64,000 bases of DNA from a bacterium (GTDB lineage: Bacteria; Actinomycetota; Acidimicrobiia; Spongiisociales; Spongiisociaceae), in assembly GCA_026710435.1 (NCBI GenBank), contig JAPOQZ010000082.1, positions 19,770 to 83,769 on the forward strand, given 5' to 3'. Within the stretch, counting starts at the first letter, position 1. Each line of letters starts with the position of its first letter. The position numbers and the translations under genes were made by a program. The notes under the pieces are model-generated. The model saw only the letters and a program-made list of their open reading frames with translations. It was not told where the DNA came from and did no database searches. Positions 48,823 through 64,000 of this stretch are shown piece by piece.

Positions 48823-50990
48823 ATCGCGCCTCCTGAAGGTTCTGCAACCGCTCCGTTGCGGTTCAGGTGGTAGCTGCGCTGGGCGTCGACCGTGGCCACG
48901 AACGATCCCGGGATCACCACGGTCGTGGTCGGTTCCTCGATGATCGCCGGCCCGGCGATACGGTTGCCGGCCTGTAGCCGGCCTCCGTCGAAGACGGGGG
49001 TGGATACCCGCTCGCCCCCGAACCAGCAGTCGCGGTGGGACTTGAGCGCAGCCGACGGGTCGGGTCCGCCCTCGGGGATCCGGTGCAGTTCGAACGGCGC
49101 CTTCGGCACGGTGGCCCGCAGCCGGAAGGTCAGCAACTCCACTCCCTGCCAGGGCATGTTGAACGTGTACAGGTCGTAGTGCTTGGCGTGGAAGTTGTCG
49201 ATCGCTTCCTCGACCGCGTCCAGCATCCGCATCCCGCCCGCATCCCGGAAGACGCTCGCCCGGAAGGTCTTCTCGGCGGCCTCCGTGAGATCCTGGCCGG
49301 GGTCCATCGGCATCTCCACCTCGACTTCGTGGAACTGCCCTATGTAGCGGAGATCGGCGGTGCGGTGGAAGCCGACATCCTCGGCCCGGTATCCCATCTC
49401 CTCGAAACCGGCGACGGCTTCCTGCTCCATGTCTTCGTAGAGCGCTTGCACCTTCTCCGCGTCGAGATCGACGAAGCGGGTGATGTACGAGCGGGCGTAG
49501 TTGCGGCCCACATCCATCGCGAACATCCCGAAGGCTGAATAGGTGGAGGCCACGGACGGCACGATCACATTGGGAAGACCCAGTATGTCGGCGATGAACG
49601 CGGCATGCACCGGACCGGCCCCGCCCCCGGCCACGAGGGTCAGGTCCCGCACGTCTATTCCCCGCCGGGTCGAGACCTCGTTGATCTCATCGGCGGTGAA
49701 CGAACTGACCGCGGTCATGATCGCCTCGGCAGCCTGCTCGAGGGTCATCCCGAGGGGTTCGGCCACCCGGTCCATTATCGCCCGTTCTGCGAGGCCGGAA
49801 TCGAGCTCGATCTCGCCTCCCAGGAAGAAGCCCGGATCGATGTAGCCGAGCGCCAGGTCGGCATCGGTGACGGTCGGTTCCTCCCCGCCCTTCCCGTAGC
49901 AGGCCGGTCCGGGATCGCTCCCTGCCGAGTTCGGGCCCACCCGCAGCAGGCCGAGCGAGTCGACCCAGGCGATCGAGCCGCCCCCGGCGCCGGCCGAGAC
50001 GATGTCCACCATCTTGATGGCCACCCGCTCGTCCTGGACCCATCCCTCGGTCGTGGTGGGGATCTCGCCTCTCATCACCACCCCGATGTCGATGGAGGTT
50101 CCGCCCATGTCGAAGCTGAGAAGGTTCTTGTGGCCCGTCTGGGTGCCGAGGTGTACGGCGCCGGCGGGTGCCGCGGCCGGCCCGGACCCGATCAGGTAGA
50201 CGGCCCGGGGAATGCAGTTCTCGACCGTCTCCACGAGACCGTCCGAGAGCATCATCATCAGGCTGCCTGAGAATCCGTTCCCAGCGAGGCGGTCTTCGAG
50301 GGCCAGCAGGTAGCGCTTCACGGCCGGGCCTGTGTATGCCGACACGGCCAGCGTGGAGAAACGCTCCCATTCCCGCCATACCGGGAGGATCTGCGAGGAG
50401 GTGGTCACGTAGACGCCCTCGCCCAGTTCCTCCTCCACGATCTCGGCGGCTCGTTGCTCGTGGGCGGGGGTGGCGTAGGAGTGCAGGAAACCGATGGCGA
50501 CCGACTCGATGCCTTCCTCGCCGAGCCGGCGGGCCGCCTCCCGCACGTCGTCCTCGTCGAGGGTGGTGAGGACCTCGCCGGTGTACAGGACCCGTTCCTC
50601 CGCCTCGAGCCGGAGGTGCCTCGGTATCAGCGGTTTGTACGGGGGCACGAAGACGTTGTACATGGAGATCCGCACGTTCTTGTAGCCGCGTCGTATCTCC
50701 AGCATGTCCCGGAAGTGCTTGGTCGTGATCATCCCGGTCCGGGCACCGTCCTCGTTGATGAGGGTGTTGGTGGCGAGGGTCGTCCCGTGGATGAGGAGAT
50801 CGACCTGTCCTAGGAAGTCCGGCAGCCCGAGCCCGTAGGCCGTTGCCGCCTTGGCAAGTGCGTCGATGCACCCGACCGAGGGATCGGGCGGGGTGGTAGG
50901 CGCTTTGAACTGGCGGAGGTCGCCGGTCTGCTCGTCGAGAACGAGGCAGTCGGTGAACGTGCCTCCCACGTCGATCGCTACCCGGTACAC
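48819..50990 (-). CDS. hyuA: Hydantoinase A/oxoprolinase family protein
   Basis: The ASKHA N-terminus is YRVAIDVGGTFTD. The product is 723 aa with a GTG start. Confidence 0.9.
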   Translation of the reverse strand: MYRVAIDVGGTFTDCLVLDEQTGDLRQFKAPTTPPDPSVGCIDALAKAATAYGLGLPDFLGQVDLLIHGTTLATNTLINEDGARTGMITTKHFRDMLEIRRGYKNVRISMYNVFVPPYKPLIPRHLRLEAEERVLYTGEVLTTLDEDDVREAARRLGEEGIESVAIGFLHSYATPAHEQRAAEIVEEELGEGVYVTTSSQILPVWREWERFSTLAVSAYTGPAVKRYLLALEDRLAGNGFSGSLMMMLSDGLVETVENCIPRAVYLIGSGPAAAPAGAVHLGTQTGHKNLLSFDMGGTSIDIGVVMRGEIPTTTEGWVQDERVAIKMVDIVSAGAGGGSIAWVDSLGLLRVGPNSAGSDPGPACYGKGGEEPTVTDADLALGYIDPGFFLGGEIELDSGLAERAIMDRVAEPLGMTLEQAAEAIMTAVSSFTADEINEVSTRRGIDVRDLTLVAGGGAGPVHAAFIADILGLPNVIVPSVASTYSAFGMFAMDVGRNYARSYITRFVDLDAEKVQALYEDMEQEAVAGFEEMGYRAEDVGFHRTADLRYIGQFHEVEVEMPMDPGQDLTEAAEKTFRASVFRDAGGMRMLDAVEEAIDNFHAKHYDLYTFNMPWQGVELLTFRLRATVPKAPFELHRIPEGGPDPSAALKSHRDCWFGGERVSTPVFDGGRLQAGNRIAGPAIIEEPTTTVVIPGSFVATVDAQRSYHLNRNGAVAEPSGGAI

Positions 50991-51044
50991 GGTGCTTCCC
51001 GCCGGACGGGCTGCTGAGAGGGGTTCGTTTGATCCATGGGGGGA

Positions 51045-51060
51045 TTGTATACGTTATGCA
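51045..51060 (+). promoter_or_regulatory. TGTATAC-type operator-like box upstream of hyuA
   Basis: TTGTATACGTTATGCA(GAA) lies 54 nt upstream of the hyuA start and is near-identical to the box at 29862-29880. Confidence 0.4.
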
Positions 51061-51207
51061 GAACGCCGGATGTGAGAGCCACCTGCTTGTCCCTGCCCTC
51101 GCGATCCTTCGGTTCGGTGACGAGGACGCTGGAACCGGACATGGCGGCTAGCCGCCTCCGTGCCGGAGGATGGGTTACCGATCCACGCGACGGCCCAGGA
51201 GCCCTTC

Positions 51208-51852
51208 CTACATGGAAGCCAGGAGGTCGTCGCAGGCTTCCTCGAGGTGGCCGGTTACGGCGCGGGCAGCCCCGTCCGGATCACCTCCTTCGATGCAGCT
51301 GCGCACCTGAGAGTGGGCGGCGTGCGACAGGTCGGTGTCCTGCAGCAGGTGGTAGCGGCCTACGTTGTCTCGGAGTTGCATGATGAGCCGATGCATCCGG
51401 GGCCGTCCGGAGTGAGAGTAGAGCACGTCGTAGAACCTGCGCCGGGTAGCCCTTCCCTCGGACGCGTCCCCATGTGAGCTGTCCATGTGCTTGGACAACT
51501 CCAGCACCGCTGCCTTCTCCTGCCTGTCGGCAAGGTTCTGCACCGCGTATCGGATGCAGCGACCTTCAAGCATGATCCGCAGTTCGTATATCTCGGCGAT
51601 GTCGCGCTTGGACAGCGCCGTCACCCAGGCCCCGCGCCGGCCGTCGATCCTCACCAGGGCCTCCTCGCCGAGCCGGCGAAGCGCATCACGCAGCGGGATT
51701 CGGCTCACCCCCAGTTGCCGGGCCAGTTCCGCTTGGGCCAGGCGTTCGCCGGGCATGAGCCGACCGCTGAGAATGGCGTCCCTCAGGGCGGATGTAACCG
51801 CGTCTTCGGCGCTGAGCGGTTCGACAGCCGGAAGTAACGGCGTACCGCTCAC
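51208..51852 (-). CDS. GntR family transcriptional regulator (FadR/FCD-type C-terminal domain)
   Basis: The wHTH is LRDAILSGRLMPGERLAQAELARQLGVSRIPLRDALRRL, followed by a helical FCD-like domain. The start is inferred as the GTG at 51852. Confidence 0.8.
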   Translation of the reverse strand: MSGTPLLPAVEPLSAEDAVTSALRDAILSGRLMPGERLAQAELARQLGVSRIPLRDALRRLGEEALVRIDGRRGAWVTALSKRDIAEIYELRIMLEGRCIRYAVQNLADRQEKAAVLELSKHMDSSHGDASEGRATRRRFYDVLYSHSGRPRMHRLIMQLRDNVGRYHLLQDTDLSHAAHSQVRSCIEGGDPDGAARAVTGHLEEACDDLLASM

Positions 51853-51895
51853 GCCAACGGAAGGTCCTTGGTTGGAGAGTCGACGCGATCCATGG

Positions 51896-51912
51896 CTGCA
51901 TATTGTATGCAG
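51896..51912. promoter_or_regulatory. Inverted repeat CTGCATA-TTG-TATGCAG in the GntR/amidohydrolase divergent region
   Basis: The 7-bp arms are perfect. It lies 44 nt upstream of the GntR start and shares the TATGCAG half-site with the box at 51045. Confidence 0.4.
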
Positions 51913-52007
51913 CAGTGCTCCTGGCGACCCGAACGGGACGGGGTCTTTCGTAGAATGTGCCCCGATATTGGCGGAACAAACCCGCCACGACAGTTGAGGA
52001 CACCGAA

Positions 52008-53414
52008 ATGATTGCCGCAGACCCACCCCGCCGGGGCCACTACGTGATCCGCAACACCACTGCTTTGACCATGGATCCGGCATTTGGGGAACTCAAGGGT
52101 ACGGACATCGAGATCGACGACGGGGTCCTGGTCGCTGTAGGCCACCGGTTGCCCGCCGAAGGAGCCGAAACCATCGACGGGAGCAACTCCATCACCTTGC
52201 CGGGTTTCGTGGATTCGCACTGGCACGTGTGGGGAACGCTTCTCAGAGGGGTGGTGGGTGACGGGAAGAAGCACGGATGGTTCGCCACCAAGGGCAGGCT
52301 GGGAGGCTCTTTCACGTCCGGGGATGTGGCGACGGGGGTGATGCTGGGCATGGCCGAGGGTATCGCCGCCGGGGTCACGACGGTCCACGACTGGTCCCAC
52401 AACATCATGCGGCACAGCGACGCCGAGGCCAACCTCGATGTCCACCGGCGGCTGGGCACCAGGGTGCACTTCTCCTACTCGGCTCCCTCGGCGCATCCCT
52501 CGATGCCCATGGAGAAGATGCGGGCCATTCTCGAGAGAGGCGGCGTGCTGCCCGACGAGGTGATGGACTTCGGAAGTATCGGGCAGATCGCCGAGGACCG
52601 GGTGCCGCAGTCGGAGGAACTCCTGACCCTCGGAGTGGGTGTTCGCGGGCCGGCCCGGTCCACACCAGAGGTCTACCGCAAGGAGTGGGCGCTGGCGAGG
52701 GAGCAGGGATTGACCATATCGATGCACTGCGCCGGGACCCGGGCGGAGGTGCAGCGCATCCACCAGGTCCGGATACTGCACGACGAGGGGCTCCTGGGGC
52801 CCGACATGCTCCTGGCCCATTGCCTCTACATCTCCCAGGCCGAACGGGAGTACCTGGCCGCCAACCGGATCCCGGTGAGCATGAGCCCCATGTCCTCGTT
52901 GAGGTTGGGCATGGGTGCACCACCCGTGACCGGGCACCTCGCCGCCGGGATCTCCGTCAGCCTGTCGCTCGACACCACCGCGATCTCGGCTTGCGCCGAT
53001 GTCTTCGCGGCTATGCGGGTGGCGGTAGGGCTGGAGGCGATCGCCAACCAGGACGCCGAGGCGCTCAGCCCCCGGCGGGCGCTGGAGTTGGCGACGATCG
53101 AAGGAGCGCGGGCCCTTGGTCTTGACCACCTGGTCGGATCGCTCTCGGTGGGCAAACGGGCCGACCTGATGATGGTACGGACCGACGCCCTGAACATGGC
53201 GCCGGTCCATGACCCGGCGGCGGCGATCGTCCATTCGGCCCAGCCGTCCAACATCGACACAGTCATGATCGACGGACGGATCCTGAAGCGCCACGGACGC
53301 TTGACTACCGTCGACCCGGCTGCGGTGGTGCAGGATGCCACCGAGCACCTGGAAGATCTTTGCCGGCGGGCCGGCTACCAGCCTCCGGACGGTGGGCTAA
53401 GGGGTGCGCAATGA
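52008..53414 (+). CDS. Metal-dependent amidohydrolase
   Basis: PGFVDSHWHVWG (HxH) and a late GKRADLMMV are present in a product of about 468 aa. Confidence 0.85.
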   Translation: MIAADPPRRGHYVIRNTTALTMDPAFGELKGTDIEIDDGVLVAVGHRLPAEGAETIDGSNSITLPGFVDSHWHVWGTLLRGVVGDGKKHGWFATKGRLGGSFTSGDVATGVMLGMAEGIAAGVTTVHDWSHNIMRHSDAEANLDVHRRLGTRVHFSYSAPSAHPSMPMEKMRAILERGGVLPDEVMDFGSIGQIAEDRVPQSEELLTLGVGVRGPARSTPEVYRKEWALAREQGLTISMHCAGTRAEVQRIHQVRILHDEGLLGPDMLLAHCLYISQAEREYLAANRIPVSMSPMSSLRLGMGAPPVTGHLAAGISVSLSLDTTAISACADVFAAMRVAVGLEAIANQDAEALSPRRALELATIEGARALGLDHLVGSLSVGKRADLMMVRTDALNMAPVHDPAAAIVHSAQPSNIDTVMIDGRILKRHGRLTTVDPAAVVQDATEHLEDLCRRAGYQPPDGGLRGAQ

Positions 53415-54265
53415 AGACGACTGTCAAGGTCGGGAACGTCGAGGTGACGGCGATTCGGGACAAGGCCCACTCCTTCGATCGAGCGTGGCACTACCCGGCC
53501 GTTCCGGAAGAGGCCTGGGAACCGTACCTGGACCTCATCGAGAGGGATCCGGGAAACGCCATGGTCAACTTCCACTGCTTCGTGGTTCGTGGAGACGGCC
53601 GGGTCGTTCTGATCGACACCGGTTGGGGACCCGAACTGGGCCCTCCGGGGGCGCCCGAGTCGCGGGGGGCGTTGCCGGACCGGCTCGCGGAACTGGGCCT
53701 GCAGCCGGCCGATGTCGACACGGTGGCGTTCACGCACCTCCACGCCGACCATGTGGGCTGGAATCTGATCTACGACGGGGATGTCATCTCTCCCCGCTTC
53801 GGGAACGCCCGTTACCTGGTCTCCAAGCGGGACTGGGCCTTCTTCAGTTCCCGCGACGAGAACCACCCGAACATCGCCCGCCAAGCCCTGCCGCTGGAGC
53901 GCGCAGGGTTGCTCGACACGTTCCCGGACGGTCACCAGCTGACCAGGTCGATCACGGCGGTCGCCACCCCGGGACACACTCCCGGCCACACCAGCTTCGT
54001 GATCCAATCGGGCGGCGAGCGGCTGTTCGTACTCGGCGACCTCATCCACCATCCGGTGGTGGCAACCGAGACCGGATGGGTACACCGGTTCGACGCCGAC
54101 CCCGACGAAGCGGTCCTCACCCGCAAGCGCCAACTCCGCGGGTTGGAGGCGGAGCGGACCCTGGTGGCCGCCGGCCATCTGAACCATCCCACCTTCGGCA
54201 GGTTCGAGCGCCGGGATGGGCGGCGGGTCTGGCAGCCACGCGCAAGCGGGGAGACCGGCGGCTGA
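53411..54265 (+). CDS. MBL-fold metallo-hydrolase
   Basis: It has the HxHxDH motif THLHADHVG. An ATGA overlap joins it to the upstream gene. Confidence 0.85.
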   Translation: MKTTVKVGNVEVTAIRDKAHSFDRAWHYPAVPEEAWEPYLDLIERDPGNAMVNFHCFVVRGDGRVVLIDTGWGPELGPPGAPESRGALPDRLAELGLQPADVDTVAFTHLHADHVGWNLIYDGDVISPRFGNARYLVSKRDWAFFSSRDENHPNIARQALPLERAGLLDTFPDGHQLTRSITAVATPGHTPGHTSFVIQSGGERLFVLGDLIHHPVVATETGWVHRFDADPDEAVLTRKRQLRGLEAERTLVAAGHLNHPTFGRFERRDGRRVWQPRASGETGG

Positions 54266-54268
54266 TCC

Positions 54269-54733
54269 GTGGACCTCTTCGGTATCTTCCTGTTCCTGCA
54301 CCTGTTCGGCGCGATGGCCGGGATCGGCCCCACCTTCGTGTTCGGGAGGATCAGCCGGCAGGGCGCCGGCACGGAGCACTCTCTCTTCGCCACCCGTGTG
54401 GTCCGCCTGCTCACCAGCACCACGGCCATCCCGCTCTCCGCGCTGGTACTGGTGTCCGGGATCGGGCTGATGGTGGTGCGGGGCTACGCGCTGTTCGACC
54501 GGATGTGGTTGCTGGTGTCGATCATCCTCTTCGCGGGCAGCTTCACATACTCGATCACGGTCCAGAACCCCACCCTGGCGCGGGTGATCGAAGCCACCCG
54601 CGGCGGCGAGCAACCGACCGGGGAGGCGGCGGCCGAGATCGCCCGCCTCCGCATCCGGATACGTCGAGGAGGCATCTACCTGCGCGCCACTGCGACCGTG
54701 ATCCTGGTCCTTATGATCTTCAAGCCGTTCTGA
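54269..54733 (+). CDS. DUF2269-like integral membrane protein
   Basis: It has four hydrophobic helices, a FLHLFGAM N-terminus and a GTG start. Confidence 0.65.
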   Translation: MDLFGIFLFLHLFGAMAGIGPTFVFGRISRQGAGTEHSLFATRVVRLLTSTTAIPLSALVLVSGIGLMVVRGYALFDRMWLLVSIILFAGSFTYSITVQNPTLARVIEATRGGEQPTGEAAAEIARLRIRIRRGGIYLRATATVILVLMIFKPF

Positions 54734-54779
54734 GGGCGAACCATGTGCACATCCATGTCTAGATCGGAGGTCTAACCCG

Positions 54780-55634
54780 ATGGTTGAACCGACTCCCCCC
54801 CTCGTCTCGGGCGACTGGCTCGAAGCACGCCTCGACGACCCCACGGTGAGGGTCATCGAGATCCAGTACGAGGCGGACACCAGCGAGTACCAGGGCGGGC
54901 ACATCCCGGGCGCGGTCAACTGGTACTGGAAGGATGTGCTCTGGCACCCGCTGGAGCGCCAGTTCCCCACCCCCCAACTGATGGCAGAACGGTTCGGGGA
55001 GTCGGGAGTCTCGTCCGATACCACCGTCGTCTTCTACAGCGGGCGCAACCAGTACGCCATCTTCGCCTACTGGGTGACCGCGGTGATGAACGGCCATCCC
55101 GATGCGCGCGTGCTAGACGGGTCTCAGAAACGCTGGCAACTCGACGGCAGGCCCATGACCATGGACGTGCCGACGTTCGACTCCGTGACCTACGAACCGC
55201 AGCAGGCCGAGCGTGACGACTCGACGCGGGTCTTCTGCCACCAGTTGCTGGCAGACCTGGGGAAGCCGGGTCTTGCGGTGCTGGACGGGCGATACGAGTC
55301 GGAGTACGTGGGTGACCGGGTGAAGCCCGGCACCGGGTTCGACTACGGGGCCGAGCGCCACGGCCGCATTCCCGGCGCCCGCCACCTGATGTTCCGCCGC
55401 CTCTTCAACGACGACAACACCCTCCGATCACCGGCGGAACTGGAGGAGACGTTCCGATCGGTGGGAGCCGCACCCGACCAGGCCGACGAGGTGGTCGCCT
55501 ACTGCCGCCTCAGCCACCGGGCGTCCCTGCTCTGGTTCACCGCCACCCGGATACTCGGCTGGGACCACGTCCGCGTATACGACGGATCGTGGACGGAATG
55601 GGGCTCATCGGTCGGATTACCCGTCGAGCGATGA
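54780..55634 (+). CDS. Tandem-rhodanese sulfurtransferase (thiosulfate/3-mercaptopyruvate type)
   Basis: GHIPGAVN lies in domain 1 and the active-site loop CRLSHRAS in domain 2. The SD is GGAGG. Confidence 0.9.
   Translation: MVEPTPPLVSGDWLEARLDDPTVRVIEIQYEADTSEYQGGHIPGAVNWYWKDVLWHPLERQFPTPQLMAERFGESGVSSDTTVVFYSGRNQYAIFAYWVTAVMNGHPDARVLDGSQKRWQLDGRPMTMDVPTFDSVTYEPQQAERDDSTRVFCHQLLADLGKPGLAVLDGRYESEYVGDRVKPGTGFDYGAERHGRIPGARHLMFRRLFNDDNTLRSPAELEETFRSVGAAPDQADEVVAYCRLSHRASLLWFTATRILGWDHVRVYDGSWTEWGSSVGLPVER
55441..55630 (+). repeat. Left copy of an approximately 190-bp direct repeat (the rhodanese 3' end)
   Basis: It aligns base-for-base with 56347-56536, with about ten substitutions and no indels that I could see. 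Confidence 0.85.
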
Positions 55635-55693
55635 ACCGGAGAGGTTGAGCACCGCATCAACGAAGTCCGGTGCTTCGACGCGGAAAAGGACGG

Positions 55694-56029
55694 TTAGTCG
55701 AGGATGGCCCTGAGGCGGGCGAGCACCTCATGTGTGGTGTCGGTGGGCGCGGTCTCGAGGAATCGGCCGTTGCGGGCCCGTAGGTCGAGGACGCGGGGTT
55801 GATCACAGCGGACAACTCCACGCGTTATCGTCTCCGAATCGTCGAGAGATACGGTGAATCCACGCCGGCGCGCGAAGTTTCCGCCGGTGGTGATGGGTAC
55901 CACGATGGGGGTCCTCGTCAGCTGATTGAAGGCTGCGGGCGAAACGACCATGACCGGTCGGGTTCCGCGCTGTTCGTGACCCGCTGCTGGGTTGAGGTCT
56001 ACGAGCCAGATGTCCCCGCGTCGGGTCAA
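55694..56029 (-). CDS. mazF: MazF/PemK family type II toxin
   Basis: RGDIWLVDLNPAAGHEQRGTRPVMVVS...PIVVPITT is classical MazF. A TTG start overlaps the mazE stop. Confidence 0.9.
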   Translation of the reverse strand: MTRRGDIWLVDLNPAAGHEQRGTRPVMVVSPAAFNQLTRTPIVVPITTGGNFARRRGFTVSLDDSETITRGVVRCDQPRVLDLRARNGRFLETAPTDTTHEVLARLRAILD

Positions 56030-56283
56030 AGCAGTTCTTCGCCCACAGCCGCGCCGTCGATCCAGGCCCGATCTTCATCGTCCGGCGGGGCTGTCGGATC
56101 GCATTGCGCGATCAGATCTTCGAGCGCGTAGCTCGGGGGACGCCTGGGTACGACGATCAAGCGCCCGTCATCGATGGCAAGGTCAACCGTCGAACCCGAC
56201 CGCACTTGCAGCACATCGAGAAGCGCTGGAGGCACAGCGAGCATCACCGACCCACCGACCTGGCGAAGCACAGCAGCACGCAT
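56026..56283 (-). CDS. mazE: MazE-like antitoxin (AbrB/SpoVT fold)
   Basis: VGGSVMLAVPPALLDVLQVRSGSTVDLAIDDGRLIV is present with an acidic tail. Confidence 0.8.
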   Translation of the reverse strand: MRAAVLRQVGGSVMLAVPPALLDVLQVRSGSTVDLAIDDGRLIVVPRRPPSYALEDLIAQCDPTAPPDDEDRAWIDGAAVGEELL

Positions 56284-56346
56284 CCACACCTCCAGTGTTA
56301 TACCGGAGTATAACTCTAGTGGCAGCCCCGACAATGCGAGCGGACA

Positions 56347-56540
56347 TGGAGGAGGCGTTCCGGTCGGTGGGAGCTGCACCCGACCAGGCCGACGAGGTGG
56401 TCGCCTACTGCCGCCTCAGCCGCCGGGCGTCGTTGCTCTGGTTCACCGCCACCCGGACACTCGGCTGGGATCACGTCCGCGTATACGACGGATCGTGGAC
56501 GGAATGGGGCTCATCGGTCGGATTACCCGTCGAGCGGTAG
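56347..56540 (+). pseudogene. Orphan duplicate of the rhodanese 3' end (right copy of the direct repeat)
   Basis: It encodes ...EEAFRSVGAAPDQADEVVAYCRLSRRASLLWFTATRTLGWDHVRVYDGSWTEWGSSVGLPVER. The upstream part of the rhodanese gene is absent. Confidence 0.85.
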
Positions 56541-56615
56541 CCGAGCTGCGTACGGGAGCCTGATCCACCTGGCAGGCGGGGTTGGATCAGCGCGGCTAAT
56601 CCGCCGGAGGTGGGC

Positions 56616-57800
56616 TCATCGACCGGATGCTTGATAGGGCGGCCGATTCGTCTCCTGGTCGATCAACTCCTCGGCCAGGTCCGCGTCCGTCGCAGCGTCT
56701 ATCGCGGTCCAGGCCAGGGCCACCGCCCCGTCGATCACGGCCCGGTCGGCCGGCGGCCGGGCCGCGGCGTCCGTGAAGCCGGGCTGGTGGTTCACGGCGG
56801 GGAGCGAGTCGATGCCGATGAACGGATGGATGGTGGGGAGGTAAACGGATACGTTGCCCATGTCGGTCGATACCGGAGGGACGTTCCCGTCGTAGAAGGA
56901 CCTTCCCAGGCGTTCGGCATTGCGCCGGTACCGCCCGGCCAGACCGTTGTGGTGCTCGAGATGGCTGTAGGGAGGATTCGGCTTGCCGACGGTCAATTCG
57001 GCGCCGGTGGCCAGCGCGCCGGCCTCGAAGCACGCCTCCACCCGCCGGCGCAGTGCGTCGAGTTGGTCGATGTGGGGGGTTCTCACCATGTAGGAGGCTT
57101 CCCCCAGCGCGGGGATGATGTTGGCGGCCGTCCCCGCCTCGGTGACTATTCCGTGGACCCGGTAGGTGGAGTTGAGATGCTGGCGGAGCAGCCCGATGCC
57201 CACCTGTGCCACCACGAGCGCGTCGGCTGCGTTGACTCCCTGCTCCGGGAAGGCGGACGCGTGGGCTTCCTTCCCCCTGTAGGAGATCTCCAGCCATTCG
57301 ATGGCCACCACCGGCGGCGCAGCCACGTCGAACGGGGCGGGATGGACCATCATGGCCAGATGGGCCGAGTCGAAGGCGCCGGCCTCGAGGAGCAACACCT
57401 TGCCCCCGCCCGCCTCCTCCGCCGGTGTGCCGAGAACCACGACCTCCAACCCCACATCGTCGGCGACCTCGGCCAGCCCGATCCCGGCGCCCACCGCCGA
57501 TGCAGAGATGACGTTGTGTCCGCAGGCGTGCCCGATCCCCGGAAGGGCGTCGTACTCGGCGCAGATCACCACCTGCAACGGGCCGTCCCCGGCGACGGCC
57601 CGGACCGCGGTGGGGATCCCCCCGTAGCCGGCTTCCACACTGAACCCGGCCCGGTCGAGAGAGTCACCCACGCATGCCGCCGACCGCACCTCCTCGAAGG
57701 CCGTTTCCGACAAGCCATGGATGGTATGGCTCAGCGAGACGAGTTCCTCCCTCGCCCGCTCGATCACCCCCTGGACTACCGCTCTAGCATCCGTACCCAC
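56616..57800 (-). CDS. M20D family amidohydrolase (aminoacylase/hippurate hydrolase/AbgB-like)
   Basis: EYDALPGIGHACGHN is the hallmark M20D motif. Confidence 0.85.
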   Translation of the reverse strand: MGTDARAVVQGVIERAREELVSLSHTIHGLSETAFEEVRSAACVGDSLDRAGFSVEAGYGGIPTAVRAVAGDGPLQVVICAEYDALPGIGHACGHNVISASAVGAGIGLAEVADDVGLEVVVLGTPAEEAGGGKVLLLEAGAFDSAHLAMMVHPAPFDVAAPPVVAIEWLEISYRGKEAHASAFPEQGVNAADALVVAQVGIGLLRQHLNSTYRVHGIVTEAGTAANIIPALGEASYMVRTPHIDQLDALRRRVEACFEAGALATGAELTVGKPNPPYSHLEHHNGLAGRYRRNAERLGRSFYDGNVPPVSTDMGNVSVYLPTIHPFIGIDSLPAVNHQPGFTDAAARPPADRAVIDGAVALAWTAIDAATDADLAEELIDQETNRPPYQASGR

Positions 57801-57829
57801 ACCGACTCCCTGCGCTGCTCGTCACCTTC

Positions 57830-57937
57830 CTAGGAGGGTGCTGAGCAATCCACCAGCGGCCTGCCAATCGCCCGGCATGACTCCTGGGTCGGCGGGCGGC
57901 AGGACCGAGCAATCGGCATTGTTCAGAGCCCTTCTAG
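57830..57937 (+). repeat. MITE-like palindromic repeat, copy 3
   Basis: It reads CTAGGAGGGTGCTGAGCAATCCACCAGCGGCCTGCCAATCG...ATTGTTCAGAGCCCTTCTAG. Confidence 0.85.
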
Positions 57938-58155
57938 TCCGGAGGTTACCCCCCGACGCCCGTCTCGGCCGCTCGGGGCCGGGACGGACCGAAAGCCATC
58001 CCCATCGATACCCCATACCGAAGCGCCACGACCCGACACCGGCCATAGCTCGATTCAGGCTTCACTTCCCCAGGATGCGGGCGGGTTGAGGAGCCAACGA
58101 CTTCTGCTCGCGGTATAGTTTCTCTAGCGGCGAACATGTGTTATGGTGGTAGGGG

Positions 58156-59508
58156 ATGAGAGTTCGTAGGGTTCTGGTAGTGCTGGCGGTCACTGTCTGG
58201 GCGGTGATGCCGGTGCCCGTTTCGGGGGAGGACAGTTCGGGGGAAGAGACAGTAGCTGCCCTGTGCGATCCGGGTTCGGTGAGTCAGTTCACCGATGTGG
58301 TCACGGGTGAGTACGGAGCGGACTACATCCTATGTGTGAGGGCTCTGGGCTTGTCGGCGGGCACAGCAGGCGGCGCCTACGGTCCGGAATCCGAACTCAC
58401 GCGGGCGCAGATGGCCACGTTCTTGGTGCGGCTATGGCAGGACGTGTTGGGGAGGGATTGCCCGGAGAGCATGGGCGTACCGTTTGTCGACGTGGCGGGT
58501 AACACCCATGAGGGGGCTATCGGCTGCTTGTACGGTCTCGGTGTCACGGTGGGTACGACCGCGGTGACTTACGACCCGGATGGGACGGTGACAGGTTCTC
58601 AGATTTCGCGGTTCTTGGCACGCGTCTACGAGAAGGCTGGCAACAGTTGCGGTTTCGAGGGTGAGGAACTCGACCGGGCGGTGGATTGTTTGGCAGCTTC
58701 GAAGGTTATACCGTCGGAAGCTGAAGGCACCAGCACCGGGTCGGCCACCAGGGACCAGATGGCTGTGTACCTGATCGGGCTGTGGCACAACCTGGCAGGT
58801 CGGGGTCTCCCGCCGGCGCCTCCCCACAAACCTGCCAACCGCATGGCCGATGTCGCCCAGACCGTCGCTGTGACAAGGCGGTCTCTGGAAGACGACGGGG
58901 AATACGACGACGAAGGCGACGAGGACGACGACAACCCCAACGCAGGGACAACAACGCGGACCACGGTCCCCGACAACACCCCCTACACCGACAACGACGG
59001 AACCGACTCCGACGGCTACGACACCCCCGACGGAAGCAGCACAGTCGGTACACAGACAACCACCGGCACCACGGGACCGACATCAGCCTCAACCGGCACC
59101 ACAGCAGTCCCCGACAACACTCCGTACACCGACAACGACGGAACCGACTCCGACGGCTACGACACCCCCGACGGGAGCACCACAGTAGGTACACGAACAA
59201 CCACCGGCACCACGGGGCCGACATCAGCCTCAACCGGCACCACAGCAGTCCCCGACAACACTCCGTACACCGACAACGACGGAACCGACTCCGACGGCTA
59301 CGACACCCCCGACGGGAGCACCACAGTAGGTACACAGACAACCACCGGCACCACGGGGCCGACATCGACCTCAACCGGCAGCACAGTCGGTACGCAAGCA
59401 ACCACCGCTACCACGGTCTCTGCATCCACCACGACGGGGCCGACATCGACCTCAACCGGCACCACAGTCCCCGACTACAGCGACAGCGCCGACAGCGACA
59501 GCGATTGA
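58156..59508 (+). CDS. Secreted protein with SLH-like domains and three 47-aa Asp/Thr-rich repeats
   Basis: It has a signal peptide (VLVVLAVTVWAVMPVPVSG). Two clear SLH-like units are present (FTDV...TRAQMATFLVRLW; FVDV...GSQISRFLARVY) plus a weaker third. The repeats contain DNDGTDSDGYDTPDG, a calcium-binding thrombospondin-type-3-like pattern. Confidence 0.8.
   Translation: MRVRRVLVVLAVTVWAVMPVPVSGEDSSGEETVAALCDPGSVSQFTDVVTGEYGADYILCVRALGLSAGTAGGAYGPESELTRAQMATFLVRLWQDVLGRDCPESMGVPFVDVAGNTHEGAIGCLYGLGVTVGTTAVTYDPDGTVTGSQISRFLARVYEKAGNSCGFEGEELDRAVDCLAASKVIPSEAEGTSTGSATRDQMAVYLIGLWHNLAGRGLPPAPPHKPANRMADVAQTVAVTRRSLEDDGEYDDEGDEDDDNPNAGTTTRTTVPDNTPYTDNDGTDSDGYDTPDGSSTVGTQTTTGTTGPTSASTGTTAVPDNTPYTDNDGTDSDGYDTPDGSTTVGTRTTTGTTGPTSASTGTTAVPDNTPYTDNDGTDSDGYDTPDGSTTVGTQTTTGTTGPTSTSTGSTVGTQATTATTVSASTTTGPTSTSTGTTVPDYSDSADSDSD
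58966..59388 (+). repeat. 3 x 141-bp near-identical tandem repeat (coding)
   Basis: Units start at 58966, 59107 and 59248. Each encodes VPDNTPYTDNDGTDSDGYDTPDGS(S/T)TVGT(Q/R)TTTGTTGPTSASTGTTA. Confidence 0.9.
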
Positions 59509-60722
59509 CGGCTGCTCGTTCGGTCTGGTCGGGAGGTCGGCGGATTGCTTATCCCCGTGACCCTACGTTGGCCGGGTTGGGGAACCTGTTCGATACGGAG
59601 TGGGTGTGGGAGGCGTACTGCCAGCGGTTCGGTGGACGCAGGTCGGATCCTCGCCGCCTTGCGGTTCGTCTCGTTAACCACAGCCCGGGGAGGCGGATCC
59701 TGGTCTCCTACAGGATCGACTGGCAGCGTGGCGACTACCTGCCGTCGGAGTACTTCACGGTGTTGCTCGAGCGTGGCGACCCTGTTGAGATGTTCCGATA
59801 CCCGGCCGACCCCTACCTGCCGGGTCTCGCGCAAGCGGCCGATCCCGGAGCTGCGCACAGGCTGATCGGCCGACATGTACTGGTTTTCCCCGGCCGTCGG
59901 GTACGTGTGGAACTGGTTCGTTACCGGCCCCGCAGCCGAGCGGTGCTCCGCCACCGCCTCGGCAAAGTGAAGCTCTACGTCCGGGTGATGCGCCCGGCCG
60001 GTATGCCTTCTTTGCTGGAAGCAGCGCAACTCGTCGCACGTTCGGGATTCGCTGCTCCCCGAGTGGCCGGACGGTGGGACGACGGTGGGGTCGTATGGCT
60101 GTCGGAGATACCGGGCATCAACGTGCGCCAGTCCCTCAGGCAGGGAAACCCGCCAACCCCCGACATGCTTCTAGACGGACTTGAAAGCCTCTGGAGTCTT
60201 CCCCGCCACACAACCAGTGCCCGCCCGTTCGGTCTCCGCGGACGGTACTACTACGCAAGGCGGGTCATCCGCCACGCCCTCGAGAACCACCGAGCGACAT
60301 CTGCGCTTCGGGACACGACCCGGGTCCTCGACCGGTTCGTGGACGGCTGGGCACCGTCTGGCATCGCCCACAACGACTTCTACGACGACCAGATGATCGT
60401 CCTACCCGACGGCAGGCCGGCACTGGTCGACTTCGAGGAAGCAGGACCGGGTGACCCCATGCTCGACATCGGGAACTTCCTCGCCCACCTCAGATGGAAC
60501 TCGACTTTCAACAAGAACCCCGACGGAGACCCCAACGGCGTCTACTACGACCTGTTCCGGTCGGCGGCACTCGAACGGTACCGGTGGAACGAAGCGGACC
60601 TCAACCTACGCGAAGCCGTCTGCCTGTTCAGGATCGCCACCAACCCGATCCGACGGCCCCGCCCAGGGTGGCGCAACAAAGTAGAAACCGGCCTACATCT
60701 GGTCAACAACACACTCAACTGA
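59505..60722 (+). CDS. Phosphotransferase enzyme family (APH/choline-kinase-like) protein
   Basis: Catalytic-loop-like IAHNDFYDDQMIV and LVDFEEAGPGDPMLDIGNFLAHL are present. The start is uncertain: the TTG at 59505 overlaps the upstream stop, and a GTG near 59601 is the alternative. Confidence 0.65.
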   Translation: MTAARSVWSGGRRIAYPRDPTLAGLGNLFDTEWVWEAYCQRFGGRRSDPRRLAVRLVNHSPGRRILVSYRIDWQRGDYLPSEYFTVLLERGDPVEMFRYPADPYLPGLAQAADPGAAHRLIGRHVLVFPGRRVRVELVRYRPRSRAVLRHRLGKVKLYVRVMRPAGMPSLLEAAQLVARSGFAAPRVAGRWDDGGVVWLSEIPGINVRQSLRQGNPPTPDMLLDGLESLWSLPRHTTSARPFGLRGRYYYARRVIRHALENHRATSALRDTTRVLDRFVDGWAPSGIAHNDFYDDQMIVLPDGRPALVDFEEAGPGDPMLDIGNFLAHLRWNSTFNKNPDGDPNGVYYDLFRSAALERYRWNEADLNLREAVCLFRIATNPIRRPRPGWRNKVETGLHLVNNTLN

Positions 60723-60931
60723 ACCAACCCGCGTCATGGATGGATGCCTGGGCCGGTCCGATTAGCCGAGAGTTGTGTAGAACCCCAACATCGCCAACAA
60801 CCCGACGGTTTCGATGGTCCGTTCGTGGCGCAACTCTCGGACGGTGCCCTATGAGGAGAGGTCGTCGTTCTCCTGTCATCTGCGAAATTAACTTCTCGCT
60901 ACAATGCCTTTACCGATATTATTGTTTCCAT

Positions 60932-61258
60932 GTGTCTGCCGAGAAGGTGCTCAGTCCGGTAACTCTCGAGGCTGCCCGGCTGTTGGGCAATCGGGTGGCG
61001 TTAGCGCGGCGCGATCGCCGGTGGACAATCGCGGAGCTCGCCGAGAGGGTGGGTGTGTCGGTTGTCACGATCCGCAAGGTGGAGAGGGGTGACCCGAGCG
61101 TCGCCCTGGGCACGGCCCTCGAAGCGGCCGCTCTTGTCGGGGTGACGCTGTTCCACGGGGATCCGGCACGGCGCTCCCTGGAGGCGGAAGTCGTGCAGGC
61201 CAGGCTCGCACTGTTGCCGGCCTCGGTGCGCCGTAGGGTCGTCGATGACGACTTTTGA
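60932..61258 (+). CDS. XRE-family HTH protein (HipB-like antitoxin/regulator)
   Basis: It has the HTH_3 core WTIAELAERVGVSVVTIRKVERGD. It lies directly upstream of a HipA N-terminal fragment. The start is a GTG at 60932 or 60947. Confidence 0.7.
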   Translation: MSAEKVLSPVTLEAARLLGNRVALARRDRRWTIAELAERVGVSVVTIRKVERGDPSVALGTALEAAALVGVTLFHGDPARRSLEAEVVQARLALLPASVRRRVVDDDF

Positions 61259-61292
61259 TCGGAGCCCGGACCCTTTGGACCCTTTCGTGTAG

Positions 61293-61658
61293 GTGTGGCT
61301 GCCGGGGGCGACCGAGCCGGTTGTCGCAGGCAGGCTGAACGACCGCGGCCCGGTGACATTCGTCTACGGACGCAGCTACCTGCAGCGGCCCGACGCGGTC
61401 GCGCTGTACCTGCCCGAGCTTCCGCTGCAACCCGGGGAGATGTGGCCACTGTCGGGCGAGATCGCCGGCTTCGTGGCCGACTCGGCCCCCGACGCCTGGG
61501 GACGGCGGGCGATCATCGAGCACCTGATCAACGTGATCCGCACCGACTGGAATGATGTCTGCGATCTCGCCGCTATGCCCGCCGTCGATAGGCAACGGCT
61601 CTGGGGACGCCAGTTCCTCAACCCCTCCTCCCTGTACGGATACACCGTTGGCGGATAG
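61293..61658 (+). pseudogene. Truncated HipA-family toxin (N-terminal coupling domain only, kinase core missing)
   Basis: VWLPG...VAGRL...FVYGRSY...LPELPL...ADSAPDAWGRRAI fits the HipA N-terminal domain. The ORF is only 121 aa, whereas HipA is about 440 aa. Confidence 0.5.
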
Positions 61659-61759
61659 GTGACAGTGGACTATAAGGGGGGCCATGGTATTTGTGGCACC
61701 GTCGGGGATCGACAGGTAGGTTTCGGGACTCCTATCGTTCTGGTCGGAGAGAGGTAGTA

Positions 61760-62683
61760 ATGCCCGCCATGTCCCAGGAACACGTACATGCCGCGGTGGT
61801 GCAAGCAGCTTCGGTCGCCTTCGATCCGCAGAAGACGCTTACCAAGGCAACCGAGCTGGCCACCAAGGCCGCCGCTCAGGGGGCCGATCTGATCCTGTTT
61901 CCAGAGGCTTTCCTTTCGGGGTATCCGAGGGGTATGGGCTTTGACACTGTGGTCGGGGCCCGAACCGAGAAGTCCCGGGATCTTTTCCTCGACTACTGGA
62001 ATTCGGCCATCGAGATTCCAGGCCCGGAGAACGATCACCTAGCCGCACTGGCAGCCGATCTGAGTGCATACCTGGTCATGGGATGCGTCGAGCGAGACGG
62101 GGGGACTCTTTACTGCACCATCCTCTACTACTCACCCGACCAAGGCCTGCTGGGGAAGCATCGCAAGGTGATGCCCACCGCTAGCGAAAGGCTCATCTGG
62201 GGATACGGCGACGGCTCCGACCTCGACGTGTACCAGACACCGATCGGGAACCTCGGAGGGGCGGTCTGCTGGGAGAACTACATGCCGCTGCTGCGCATGA
62301 GCCTGTACCAGCAGGACATCCAGATCTGGTGCGCGCCTACTGCCGATGCCCGCGACAGCTGGACAGCCTCGATGCGACACATCGCCGTCGAGGGACGATG
62401 CTTCGTGCTGGGCGCCAACCAGTATGCAACCCGGTCCGACTATCCGGAGAGCTACGACTCGGTCTTCGGCGATGACCCCGAGACGCTCGTCACGCGGGGA
62501 GCGAGCTGCATCGTCGATCCGTTCGGCCGGCTTCTGGCCGGCCCGCACACCGACGGCGAAACGATCCTCCTGGCAGAACTCGACCTGCGGGACACGGTAC
62601 GCGGAAGGTTCGACCTCGACGTCGCTGGTCACTACTCGCGAGGCGAAATCTTCGAGATGAGGGTCCGAACCCGCCCCGCCTAA
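61760..62683 (+). CDS. Nitrilase (branch 1 nitrilase-like CN hydrolase)
   Basis: FPEAFLSGYP (Glu), HRKVMPT (Lys) and GGAVCWENYMP (Cys) form the catalytic triad. The SD is GGAGAGAGG. Confidence 0.9.
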   Translation: MPAMSQEHVHAAVVQAASVAFDPQKTLTKATELATKAAAQGADLILFPEAFLSGYPRGMGFDTVVGARTEKSRDLFLDYWNSAIEIPGPENDHLAALAADLSAYLVMGCVERDGGTLYCTILYYSPDQGLLGKHRKVMPTASERLIWGYGDGSDLDVYQTPIGNLGGAVCWENYMPLLRMSLYQQDIQIWCAPTADARDSWTASMRHIAVEGRCFVLGANQYATRSDYPESYDSVFGDDPETLVTRGASCIVDPFGRLLAGPHTDGETILLAELDLRDTVRGRFDLDVAGHYSRGEIFEMRVRTRPA

Positions 62684-62701
62684 CTGCTGACTCGTCCGGC
62701 G

Positions 62702-62808
62702 CTAGGCGGGTGCTGAACAATGACGATTGCTCGGGCCTGCCGCCCGCCGGCCCAGGCATTTTGCCGGCGGTTGGCAGGCCGCTGGTGGATTGCTCAGCAC
62801 CCTCCTAG
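62702..62808 (-). repeat. MITE-like palindromic repeat, copy 4 (inverted orientation)
   Basis: Its reverse complement aligns with copies 2 and 3. It lies between convergent genes, and its terminus contains the stop codon of the D-aminoacylase gene. Confidence 0.85.
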
Positions 62809-64000
62809 GCGGAACGTTTCAGGACCTGGCCGGGCCGGGCGCCGTTGTGGGTTCCTTGCTCGACGACCCGCGTGCCGTTGACCCAGACTCCGTGTATCCC
62901 CGCGGGAAACCGGTGGGGTGCTTCGTAGGTTCCCAGGTCGACGATCTCCTGCGGATCGAACAGGACGAGATCGGCGATGGCGCCCGGTCTGATGACCCCG
63001 CGGTCGGCCAGGCCGAAGACGTGTGCCGGGCGTCCGGTCATCTTGTGAACCGCCTGTTCGATGGTGAGCAGCCCGAGATCCCGGCCGTAGCGGCCGATGA
63101 CCCTGGCAAACGTTCCGTAGAGACGTGGATGGGGCGTACCGTCCAATGTGGGAACACCGTCACTGCCGACCATTATGTCAGGACGGGCCACAGCCGTCCG
63201 GACGTCTTCCTCGGACATCATGTGTAGTACGACGGTCGCGTTTGGCTCTGCCTCGAGGACAACCCCACCCACCTCCGAGGGAACGACACCCAGTCCGTCC
63301 GCCAGATCGGCGAGGGAGCGGCCGTGCCACTCGGGGTGGTCTTTCGTCGACGCGATCACGACCGTCTCGGGCGAGGTGTTCCTGATGCCGCCGTCGACTA
63401 CCGCCGCCAGCCCGGTACTCCCGGCCGTGTACGGATAGTGGTCGGCGGTGACCGTAGGACCCGCCCGGTCGATCCGGGCCAGGGCGTCGCTGACCTTGCC
63501 GAAGTTGCGGTTCCCGGCCACCTTCAGATGCGAGATCACCACCGGCGCACAGGCCGCCTGCCCGATCGCGATGGCCTCGTCCACAGCCTCGATCAGCCGG
63601 TCGCCCTCGTCGCGTATGTGCGACGCGTAGACACCCCCTGTCTCGCCCACCGGGCTGGCAACTTGGGCTATTTCTTCCGTAGTGGCGTACCTTCCCGGCT
63701 CGTACACCAACCCGGTCGACACACCGACGCACCCGGCTTCCAGAGCCTTGCTGACCAGGCTGGACATCTCGCCGATCTGGGCCGGGCTCGGATCGGCGGG
63801 ACCTCGTCCTGCAACGCCCTCCCGTATCGTCCCGTGACCGGCCAGTGCAGCTACGTTCACCGAGGCCGGAGAGGCGTCCATGTAGTCGAAGTAATCCTGG
63901 AAGTCCTTCCACTCCGGCAGTTCCGCGTCACCATGGACCATGCGCACGAAGAACTCGTTCCAGCGCCGGGGCGCCGCCCCGATCCCGCAATTGCCGACCA
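62805..64000 (-). CDS. D-aminoacylase / N-acyl-D-amino-acid deacylase family amidohydrolase (5' end beyond the window)
   Basis: YASHIRDEG, VVISHLKV and the late GSDG are present. The frame stays open to base 64000 and reads ...VGNCGIGAAP, the GNCG motif of the family. Confidence 0.85.
   Translation of the reverse strand, partial: VGNCGIGAAPRRWNEFFVRMVHGDAELPEWKDFQDYFDYMDASPASVNVAALAGHGTIREGVAGRGPADPSPAQIGEMSSLVSKALEAGCVGVSTGLVYEPGRYATTEEIAQVASPVGETGGVYASHIRDEGDRLIEAVDEAIAIGQAACAPVVISHLKVAGNRNFGKVSDALARIDRAGPTVTADHYPYTAGSTGLAAVVDGGIRNTSPETVVIASTKDHPEWHGRSLADLADGLGVVPSEVGGVVLEAEPNATVVLHMMSEEDVRTAVARPDIMVGSDGVPTLDGTPHPRLYGTFARVIGRYGRDLGLLTIEQAVHKMTGRPAHVFGLADRGVIRPGAIADLVLFDPQEIVDLGTYEAPHRFPAGIHGVWVNGTRVVEQGTHNGARPGQVLKRSA

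Follow-up and report, generated by a model that had tools for sequence, protein, structure and literature searches.

Displacement of a rhodanese gene end as the probable origin of a repeat-flanked Kis/Kid-type toxin–antitoxin module in sponge-associated Acidimicrobiia

In the 64000-nt stretch of DNA analysed here, hereafter the window (GenBank assembly GCA_026710435.1, contig JAPOQZ010000082.1, positions 19770–83769, from a member of the Acidimicrobiia), the 3′ end of a rhodanese (sulfurtransferase) gene occurs twice, and between the two copies lies a toxin–antitoxin (TA) pair predicted to be of the Kis/Kid (MazE/MazF) type. The arrangement is best explained, as judged from the sequences of relatives, by a TA module that would have spread in nature with a piece of the rhodanese gene as its homology arm and would have displaced the resident gene end. 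We consider it probable, with moderate confidence, that the module was acquired by homology-anchored recombination with one illegitimate joint, i.e. by a single crossover of a circularized fragment or by homology-facilitated illegitimate recombination (HFIR), the outcome being a C-terminal displacement. The locus is a fresh example of known recombination processes and not a new kind of mobile element. Accounts of chromosomal TA modules that lack mobility genes seldom say precisely how these modules move, and the natural series described below, of an empty allele, a simple insertion and two differently joined duplicated forms, exposes the homology arm, the divergence step and the joints in the sequence. 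Beyond the movement of the TA module and a warning for annotation, the biology of the locus is ordinary.

Two copies of a rhodanese gene end enclose the TA pair

A repeat search of positions 53000–59000 identified a direct repeat of 197 nt, in which 55434–55630 (copy 1) recurs at 56340–56536 (copy 2) with 95% identity, no gaps and an offset of 906 nt; the remaining repeats in this interval were all of 35 nt or less, with 71–93% identity. These data bear out the description given in an earlier note, which was made from the sequence of the window alone, of a 190-bp direct repeat free of indels that brackets mazEF, and base-by-base comparison showed its reading of the repeated segment as the last 64 or so codons of the sulfurtransferase gene to be correct. 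The same comparison gave 8 substitutions (4.2%) between the repeat cores 55441–55630 and 56347–56536, so that the figure of about ten in the note was slightly high for these coordinates, although the copies do differ by substitutions as it had stated. Five of the eight are synonymous and three are replacements in the rhodanese frame (Thr→Ala, His→Arg and Ile→Thr), and the final 65 nt of the repeat are free of differences (p~0.03). At fourfold-degenerate sites, on which the divergence values between loci in Table 2 are based, the two copies differ at 4/37. On the 5′ side, mismatches at 55439 and 55440 are preceded by five matches (GCGGA, 55434–55438), upstream of which the likeness is gone. On the 3′ side, identity ends past 55630, where copy 1 reads CGA-TGA and copy 2 reads CGG-TAG, confirming the difference in stop codon already pointed out in the note, and dissimilar DNA follows. 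The 705 nt between the copies (55635–56339) hold mazF, mazE, a 59-nt spacer and the mazEF promoter region and nothing else. The note had likewise placed only the two genes and a hairpin there; the hairpin in the spacer, however, folds no better than shuffled sequences (z −1.0) and has no T-run, and no terminator-like site was found. The G+C content of the window is 65.6%.

Both copies are spanned by six contigs from separate ENA and JGI assemblies (L001–L006), which are 99.97–100% identical across the locus. A one-off collapse or chimera is ruled out by these six independent assemblies, which contradict the assembly artefact that the earlier note had raised as a possibility. The six contigs represent one strain and are uninformative on the history of the locus.

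Copy 2 is best read as a decaying pseudogene fragment, although annotation pipelines call it a 64-amino-acid rhodanese, and such a call should be taken as a warning that a displaced gene end may be annotated as a gene. Its open reading frame (ORF) of 64 codons is opened by an in-frame ATG at 56346, which was made by the joint, and ends with TAG at 56538–56540. Two of the replacements in copy 2 fall at positions that do not vary among the relatives: Ile→Thr, and His→Arg in the catalytic loop, which reads CRLSHRAS in copy 1 and throughout the relatives. A role for copy 2 as a functional mini-protein was also weighed but discarded, as the first half of the catalytic domain is gone, the start codon is a by-product of the joint, invariant positions are replaced and the counterpart in the related contig L090 is shorter still. 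The differences between the copies are biased towards synonymous changes (3/8 non-synonymous versus 74% expected, p=0.03, the numbers being small), which suggests that they built up largely at a time when each copy still belonged to a working gene.

Empty, simply inserted and duplicated alleles in relatives

The relatives compared, which are metagenome contigs and metagenome-assembled genomes, form an allelic series at this locus. L007 has an empty site: window positions 52026–55639 and 56336–57803 correspond to one continuous stretch of this contig (7253–10860 and 10651–12113), and both window copies map on to a single gene end, which is followed by a short intergenic region and then by the gene for an M20-family peptidase. 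L175 is also empty for the cassette; here the TAG gene end runs into M20, in an alignment that covers window positions 56347–57809, and the 5′ part of the rhodanese gene is lost. The single rhodanese 3′ end that the earlier reading implied for an uninterrupted site is thus found in both L007 and L175, and the possibility weighed against that reading, i.e. that all relatives carry the same duplication, does not hold, as these two are empty and L177 is without the second copy.

L177, which is the genomic sister of L175 (M20 divergence of 15%), carries a rhodanese fragment with a TGA stop, a spacer of ~220 nt, mazF, mazE, a tail of ~290 nt and M20, in this order. It measures 1113 nt from the rhodanese stop to M20, i.e. 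a simple insertion of ~1.1 kb, and no trace of a second rhodanese copy was found in it, the tail continuing into M20-proximal intergenic DNA. In L087, the rhodanese gene (TGA) is followed by the same 59-nt spacer as in the window, by mazF and by the 3′ half of mazE; homology breaks at window position 56172, and unrelated genes lie beyond. L090, which has the closest MazF (92% at the amino acid level), shows a gene end (TGA), a long spacer, mazF, mazE, ~80 nt of the tail and then rhodanese sequence again from ~55503.

The cassette and its rhodanese end are younger than their flanks

The divergence between loci, segment by segment, is given in Table 2. In the comparison of the window with L177, the cassette differs from M20 with p=4.5e-9 (Fisher test), and in that with L087 the cassette (12/88) differs from the flanks (64/188) with p=3e-4; between the sisters L175 and L177, it is the rhodanese fragment that departs from M20 (p=1e-3). 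A maximum-χ2 analysis of the window versus L087 placed a breakpoint inside the rhodanese gene at ~55205, where divergence falls from 17.1% to 9.3% (0/1000 permutations). These data show that the cassette and the attached rhodanese end are much younger than the DNA on either side. In addition, the L177 fragment is nearer to window copy 1 than to the fragment of its own sister L175, and neighbour joining on the 190-nt segment groups it with copy 1, copy 2 and L087 (97% bootstrap support), with L175 left outside. The divergence step and the clade that excludes L175 therefore indicate that the rhodanese 3′ end was imported together with the cassette, as a homology arm, and in L177 the imported fragment has replaced the resident gene end. 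The claim that the insert carries a rhodanese 3′ end of its own, made beforehand from the window alone, is borne out by these values (39.5% from L175 and 21.6% from copy 1) and by the 97% clade.

Table 2 Divergence at fourfold-degenerate sites (all sites for the spacer)
Comparison	Segment	Differences/sites	Divergence
Window versus L177	M20	101/205	49%
Window versus L177	mazF + mazE	21/121	17%
Window copy 1 versus L177	Rhodanese fragment	8/37	21.6%
Window copy 2 versus L177	Rhodanese fragment	6/34	
Window versus L087	DUF2269	29/85	34%
Window versus L087	Rhodanese 5′ part	35/103	34%
Window versus L087	Copy 1	10/39	26%
Window versus L087	mazF	10/67	15%
Window versus L087	mazE 3′ part	2/21	10%
Window versus L087	Spacer (all sites)	3/59	5%
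L175 versus L177	M20	34/227	15%
L175 versus L177	Rhodanese fragment	15/38	39.5%
Window versus L090	mazF	11/71	
Window versus L090	mazE	11/50	

Stop codons and junctions

All 4 cassette-bearing loci (the window, L087, L090 and L177) have a CGA/CGG-TGA gene end and a common spacer, and in each of them the left edge of the insert is at the stop codon; CGG-TAG is found in copy 2 and in the loci that have no cassette after the rhodanese end (L007, L175 and L088). The linkage of the TGA end and spacer to the cassette therefore argues that the primary insertion began exactly at the last codon or stop and brought its own stop. Copy 2, its TAG and the following 75 nt are colinear with the empty sites. 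Because copy 2 has the stop and the intergenic DNA of the empty allele, any account of the locus must include at least one insertion into such an allele that was anchored by homology on one side and illegitimate on the other. The 59-nt spacer derives from the ~220-nt form found in L177 and L090 by a deletion between CCGGTTAGGTCG and CCGGAGAAGTCG, which the window and L087 have in common.

The right junction varies by lineage, being at gene position 55441 in the window and ~55503 in L090, with no second copy to form one in L177. The window keeps ~6 nt of the tail, and its junction sequence GCGGACATGGAG fits both the tail GGACATCGAG of L177 and L090 and the gene GCGGAACTGGAG, the tail giving way to the gene at 56346/56347; across the joint (56340–56350) it agrees with the tail at 9/10 positions and with the gene at 10/12, and tail and gene agree with each other at ~8/12. 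In L090 the joint is a different one, where tail GGACGCCTCACC meets gene TGCCGCCTCAGCC. Such variation in joints, each at imperfect microhomology, is characteristic of illegitimate recombination and not of a site-specific recombinase. No integrase or transposase was found among the called genes of window positions ~50163–64000 (gene and Pfam table of the identical contig L001), in agreement with the earlier note, which had seen no integrase, and there was no recombinase in the 8–10 kb examined on either side in L177 and L175. A tRNA scan found none in the whole window.

The TA module

The toxin matches PF02452 (E 4.2e-30) over profile positions 1–109/109 and aligns end to end, at residues 3–110, with Kid of plasmid R1 (PDB 1m1f; E 3e-42). 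His18, Arg74 and Asp76 of the toxin fall, in an ungapped alignment, on His17, Arg73 and Asp75 of Kid, which we take to be its catalytic residues. The antitoxin gives a marginal sequence signal, with 24.5 bits against PF04014, just below the cut-off of 24.7, and matches the AbrB/MazE/SpoVT chain 7d2n_E (E 1.9e-4) and MazE 1ub4_C (E 5e-3) in the PDB; its place upstream of the toxin, its ORF of 85 amino acids and the 4-nt overlap suit MazE/Kis. By these criteria the pair is a predicted type II TA module of the Kis/Kid (MazE/MazF) type. It resembles the known Kis/Kid (PemI/PemK) and MazE/MazF systems in the full-length toxin match, the upstream antitoxin with its 4-nt overlap, the AbrB/MazE-type N-terminus and a palindrome over the predicted −10 box, but differs from them in being chromosomal, in residing in uncultured Acidimicrobiia and in the only marginal similarity of its antitoxin.

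The sole promoter-like site for mazEF is sigma70-like, with a −35 box TTGTCG at 56334–56329 and a −10 box TATACT at 56312–56307 (shuffled sequences give 0.3 sites). A perfect 7+7 palindrome, GTTATAC-CGGA-GTATAAC at 56297–56314, overlaps the −10 box, is kept in L177 and L090 and is the putative mazEF operator. The −35 box lies ~6 nt from the right-hand joint, indicating that the window insert has been cut back almost to its functional minimum. In a limited sense this bears out one part of the earlier proposal of a minimal mobile cassette or scar of a larger island, in that the window holds a trimmed form of a ~1.1-kb insert, and the earlier placing of the recombination at the rhodanese 3′ end is likewise supported; the attL/attR-type part of the proposal gained no support.

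A model of gene-end displacement

We propose that the arrangement arose by recombination between two allelic forms of a single chromosomal locus present in Ca. Spongiisociaceae-like Acidimicrobiia that live in association with sponges. The ancestral, empty form (allele A) would consist of the rhodanese gene (TAG) and the convergent M20 gene, ~75–90 nt apart. Allele B would have arisen once, when ~1.1 kb, made up of a ~220-nt spacer, a Kis/Kid-type mazE–mazF pair and a ~290-nt tail, was inserted exactly at the last codon or stop of the rhodanese gene and supplied a new TGA stop. It would then have spread among lineages by ordinary homologous recombination, with the rhodanese 3′ end as one arm and M20 as the other where available. 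Where both arms were homologous, a clean replacement would result, as in L177, whereas in the window lineage the incoming DNA would have left the resident gene end unreplaced. The fragment that entered there would have comprised the rhodanese 3′ end from ~55441, TGA, spacer, mazF, mazE, the promoter and 6 nt of tail, and would have been joined to itself or to the target at the patchy microhomology that tail GGACATCGAG has with gene GGAACTGGAG. It would then have integrated through one homologous exchange in the rhodanese 3′ end, by Campbell-type integration of a circle or by the formally equivalent HFIR. The product would be a complete gene, made up of the 5′ part and copy 1 with its TGA, followed by the cassette and then by the resident end, displaced downstream as copy 2 with TAG, the old intergenic DNA and M20. 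The trimming of the cassette to a functional minimum would follow because joints that removed the mazEF promoter would be counter-selected. Loop-out between the repeats by RecA would bring back an empty site, yet the cell would thereby lose its antitoxin, and this may help the repeat-flanked arrangement to persist through addiction. The order of these events, the choice between a circular intermediate and HFIR, and stabilization by addiction are the parts of the model that we infer.

The sequence has the two ends that such a process should leave: copy 1 is continuous with the gene, and the other end is joined within 56340–56350 at patchy microhomology. The imported tract is visible as a divergence step against its flanks (p 1e-3 to 4e-9). 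Experimental precedent comes from Escherichia coli, where, among 60 integrants of a non-replicating molecule with a lacZ end, 56 had part of the homologous segment duplicated on either side of the insert (109–950 bp in the 14 sequenced). These duplications resulted from single crossovers in which the incoming molecule was circular, and true HFIR occurred much less often (PMC3240628). HFIR and C-terminal displacement have been proposed for the effector–immunity loci of type VI secretion systems (T6SS) and Rhs proteins (PMC5361080).

Several observations weigh against this model. In the neighbour-joining tree copies 1 and 2 are nearest to each other (90% bootstrap), and the two are equally near the imported fragment of L177 (Table 2), so that the data do not show copy 1 to be foreign and copy 2 to be resident; a slightly diverged donor, or gene conversion after the event, must be assumed to account for their likeness. 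Either of these would also fit the 4–5% divergence from which the note had suggested a different lineage for one copy. The phylogeny of the copies proposed in the earlier note thus places them as sisters, but over 190 nt neither shared polymorphisms nor the distances to L177, L087 and L007 single out the native one. L090 and the window also keep the same first ~10 nt of the tail beside copy 2, and L090, a 1.1-kb contig that ends inside the repeat, has a structure read from a fragment. Finally, no circular form, deletion variant or donor strain was seen among the relatives compared.

Alternative explanations

The first alternative, which we consider unlikely but deserving of attention, is that of one older and larger structure, consisting of rhodanese (TGA), cassette, long tail, possibly more DNA, a second copy (TAG) and M20, from which the window, L090 and L177 would be different deletion derivatives, with gene conversion keeping the window copies 95% alike. 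The start of the same tail beside copy 2 in the window and L090 speaks for such a structure, as does the finding that the window cassette has, on either flank, been shortened by deletion relative to the longer forms in L177 and L090, and the sister position of the copies and their identical 65-nt 3′ block fit conversion. However, the tail of L177 enters M20-proximal DNA without trace of a second copy, and the conversion is ad hoc, since the cassettes of the window and L090 are more diverged (Table 2) than copy 1 is from copy 2 (4/37). Since it still starts from a homology-anchored insertion of the same kind, this explanation departs from the favoured one only in how many events took place and when.

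A more far-reaching extension, which we regard as doubtful, is that the rhodanese 3′ end and mazEF together form a recombinase-free, self-perpetuating passenger that relies on RecA loop-out, re-entry and addiction by the Kid-like toxin. Loop-out would free a 906-bp circle with one homology arm, the circle would re-enter a naive rhodanese allele by a single crossover and so remake the repeat-flanked form, and addiction would penalize cells that lost the unit. If this were true, TA modules could spread with a conserved piece of a host gene as their own ‘attachment site’.

Site-specific integration is very unlikely. It would make the repeats the attL and attR of an integrase-driven island at the rhodanese 3′ end that later decayed to mazEF, much as the earlier note had read them. 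An intact gene, an insert and a displaced gene end are indeed the topology left by integrative elements that target gene 3′ ends, and IS (insertion sequence)-type genes are present in L087 (see below). TA modules are common cargo of islands and outlive them as they decay, which also suits this explanation. Yet the joint between insert and gene end falls at a different gene position in each lineage, each time at imperfect microhomology, a 190-nt ‘att’ that is 4% diverged and has no conserved core would be atypical, and neither an integrase nor a tRNA was found in the intervals given above; on these grounds the attL/attR reading is not supported. In addition, with the long insert as query, a plasmid search matched only the mazF/mazE coding sequence (~66%, enterobacterial plasmids), leaving spacer and tail unmatched, and a phage search gave no matches.

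We give even less credence to a purely local origin, in which the gene end would have been duplicated in situ beside an existing mazEF, by replication slippage or unequal sister exchange, with no transfer between lineages. The copies are direct, 906 nt apart and most alike to each other, as would fit such an origin, but the stop and downstream DNA of copy 2 are of the empty-allele and not the cassette-allele type, unequal exchange in an occupied allele would duplicate the TGA end together with the cassette, and three pairwise comparisons show the cassette and gene end to be significantly younger than the flanks. An assembly artefact, i.e. a collapsed or chimeric repeat, is practically negligible, for although ~200-nt repeats can break short-read graphs and L090 ends inside the repeat, six separate contigs span both copies, whose 8 core differences are enough for reads to resolve them.

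Comparison with known systems

The favoured model of gene-end displacement resembles Campbell-type integration and HFIR in having one homologous arm and one microhomology joint, and in an insert flanked by a direct duplication (109–950 bp in E. coli; PMC3240628), but the window case is deduced from natural variation whereas those were observed in E. coli experiments. The likeness to C-terminal displacement at Rhs, contact-dependent inhibition (CDI) and T6SS effector–immunity loci lies in the arrival of a piece of the upstream gene together with new downstream genes, the old 3′ part being orphaned downstream (PMC5361080). What those loci acquire are new toxic tips with immunity genes, and their orphans can serve again; the window, by contrast, received a gene end for an unchanged protein together with a TA pair unrelated to it, and its orphan appears to be decaying. 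With integrative islands at the 3′ ends of genes or tRNAs the locus shares an intact target gene, an insert and a displaced duplicate of the target 3′ end; unlike them it has no recombinase or conserved core, its junctions vary by lineage, and its repeat is both long and diverged. Repeats on both sides of a TA pair at the 3′ end of a gene therefore need not be the scar of an integrase.

Related mazEF modules and rhodanese genes elsewhere

The bare mazEF module (window ~55688–56322) also occurs in unrelated contexts in L091–L094, without rhodanese sequence or convincing flanking repeats. No convincing gene-end duplications were found around the modules of L091, L092 and L093, so that mazEF modules of this family are not as a rule accompanied by such a duplication. 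The module of L092 (9451–10086; ENA sample ERZ27241798, the same as for L001) is ~85% identical at the nucleotide level to 55688–56322 and lies between a molybdopterin oxidoreductase gene and a PNP_UDP_1 (nucleoside phosphorylase family) gene, with sharp homology edges and no flanking repeats; it appears paralogous or xenologous to that of the window. In L093 the module is flanked by weak direct repeats (9070–9114/10315–10359, 45 nt, 78%; 9471–9523/10370–10422, 53 nt, 72%), one of which, upstream of the module and beside a CRISPR (clustered regularly interspaced short palindromic repeats) cas1–cas2 pair, looks like what is left of a mazF 3′ end. In L087 (11247–11393 onward), mazE is without its N-terminal DNA-binding half and promoter, and the mazF ORF is intact with 12 amino acid changes; IS-type rve and HTH_21 genes lie 3.5–5 kb downstream.

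Orthologues of the rhodanese have amino acid identities of 90% (L087), 86% (L007) and 81% (L088). A search of metagenome contigs with the rhodanese protein gave, among the matches listed, none above 68% at the amino acid level and no strain-level variants, and the window's own JGI contigs were absent from these matches. A 61-amino-acid fragment ORF near the junction position (P0245) was rejected as a frameshifted full-length gene of a distant relative (66% nucleotide identity) with no cassette site. The rhodanese gene is 5′-truncated in L175 (8001–8246) and L177 (3019–3281), with boundaries near window 55372–55390, and in L178 (4696–5104; boundary at 55225), i.e. in at least two independent lineages, leaving C-terminal ORFs of 81 amino acids beside the downstream gene. 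The gene end thus seems to survive rearrangements repeatedly. A block of molybdenum cofactor-dependent oxidase and transketolase-like genes adjoins the rhodanese fragment in opposite orientations in L175 (4743–7926) and L177 (311–2964), which suggests an inversion with one endpoint at the 5′ boundary of the fragment.

Features of the locus and neighbouring sequences

The features of the locus are listed in Table 1.

Table 1 Features of the repeat-flanked locus, in window positions
Feature	Position	Strand	Basis
Rhodanese/sulfurtransferase gene, intact, two-domain, 284 amino acids, stop TGA	54780–55634	+	Pfam Rhodanese, E 1.9e-29
Repeat copy 1, functional rhodanese 3′ end; last codon and stop CGA TGA at 55629–55634, cassette-linked type	55434–55630	+	Repeat comparison
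Spacer, 59 nt, between convergent rhodanese and mazF; weak hairpin ~55646–55677	55635–55693		Alignment
mazF/kid-type toxin gene, 111 amino acids, TTG start, 4-nt overlap with mazE	55694–56029	−	PemK_toxin, E 4.2e-30
mazE/kis-type antitoxin gene, 85 amino acids	56026–56283	−	MazE_antitoxin, 24.5 bits (cut-off 24.7)
Predicted mazEF promoter-like site and palindrome	56297–56334	−	Promoter scan
Putative illegitimate junction, GCGGACATGGAG, matching tail and gene alike	56340–56350		Alignments
Repeat copy 2, displaced orphan rhodanese 3′ end	56340–56536	+	Colinear with empty sites L007 and L175
Ancestral rhodanese–M20 intergenic region, 75 nt	56541–56615		Uninterrupted BLAST alignments into M20 in L007 and L175
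M20-family peptidase gene, convergent to rhodanese, right-hand anchor	56616–57800	−	Pfam M20_dimer, Peptidase_M20

An Rfam scan was negative. One sub-threshold match, to a plant-virus translation element at 59681–59765 (28.3 bits, gathering threshold 40, E 0.017), is almost certainly due to chance in G+C-rich coding sequence. Just past M20, a tandem repeat of 141-nt units (58966–59386; 3.0 copies, 95% identity) lies inside the ORF 58156–59508 and encodes Thr/Asp-rich units of 47 amino acids in a protein of 450 amino acids with a faint SLH-domain match. Further downstream, at ~60710–61517 (L001 10548–11355), a 135-amino-acid HTH_31/HTH_3 gene is followed by a 121-amino-acid gene without assigned function, and these two could be another small TA-like two-gene module.

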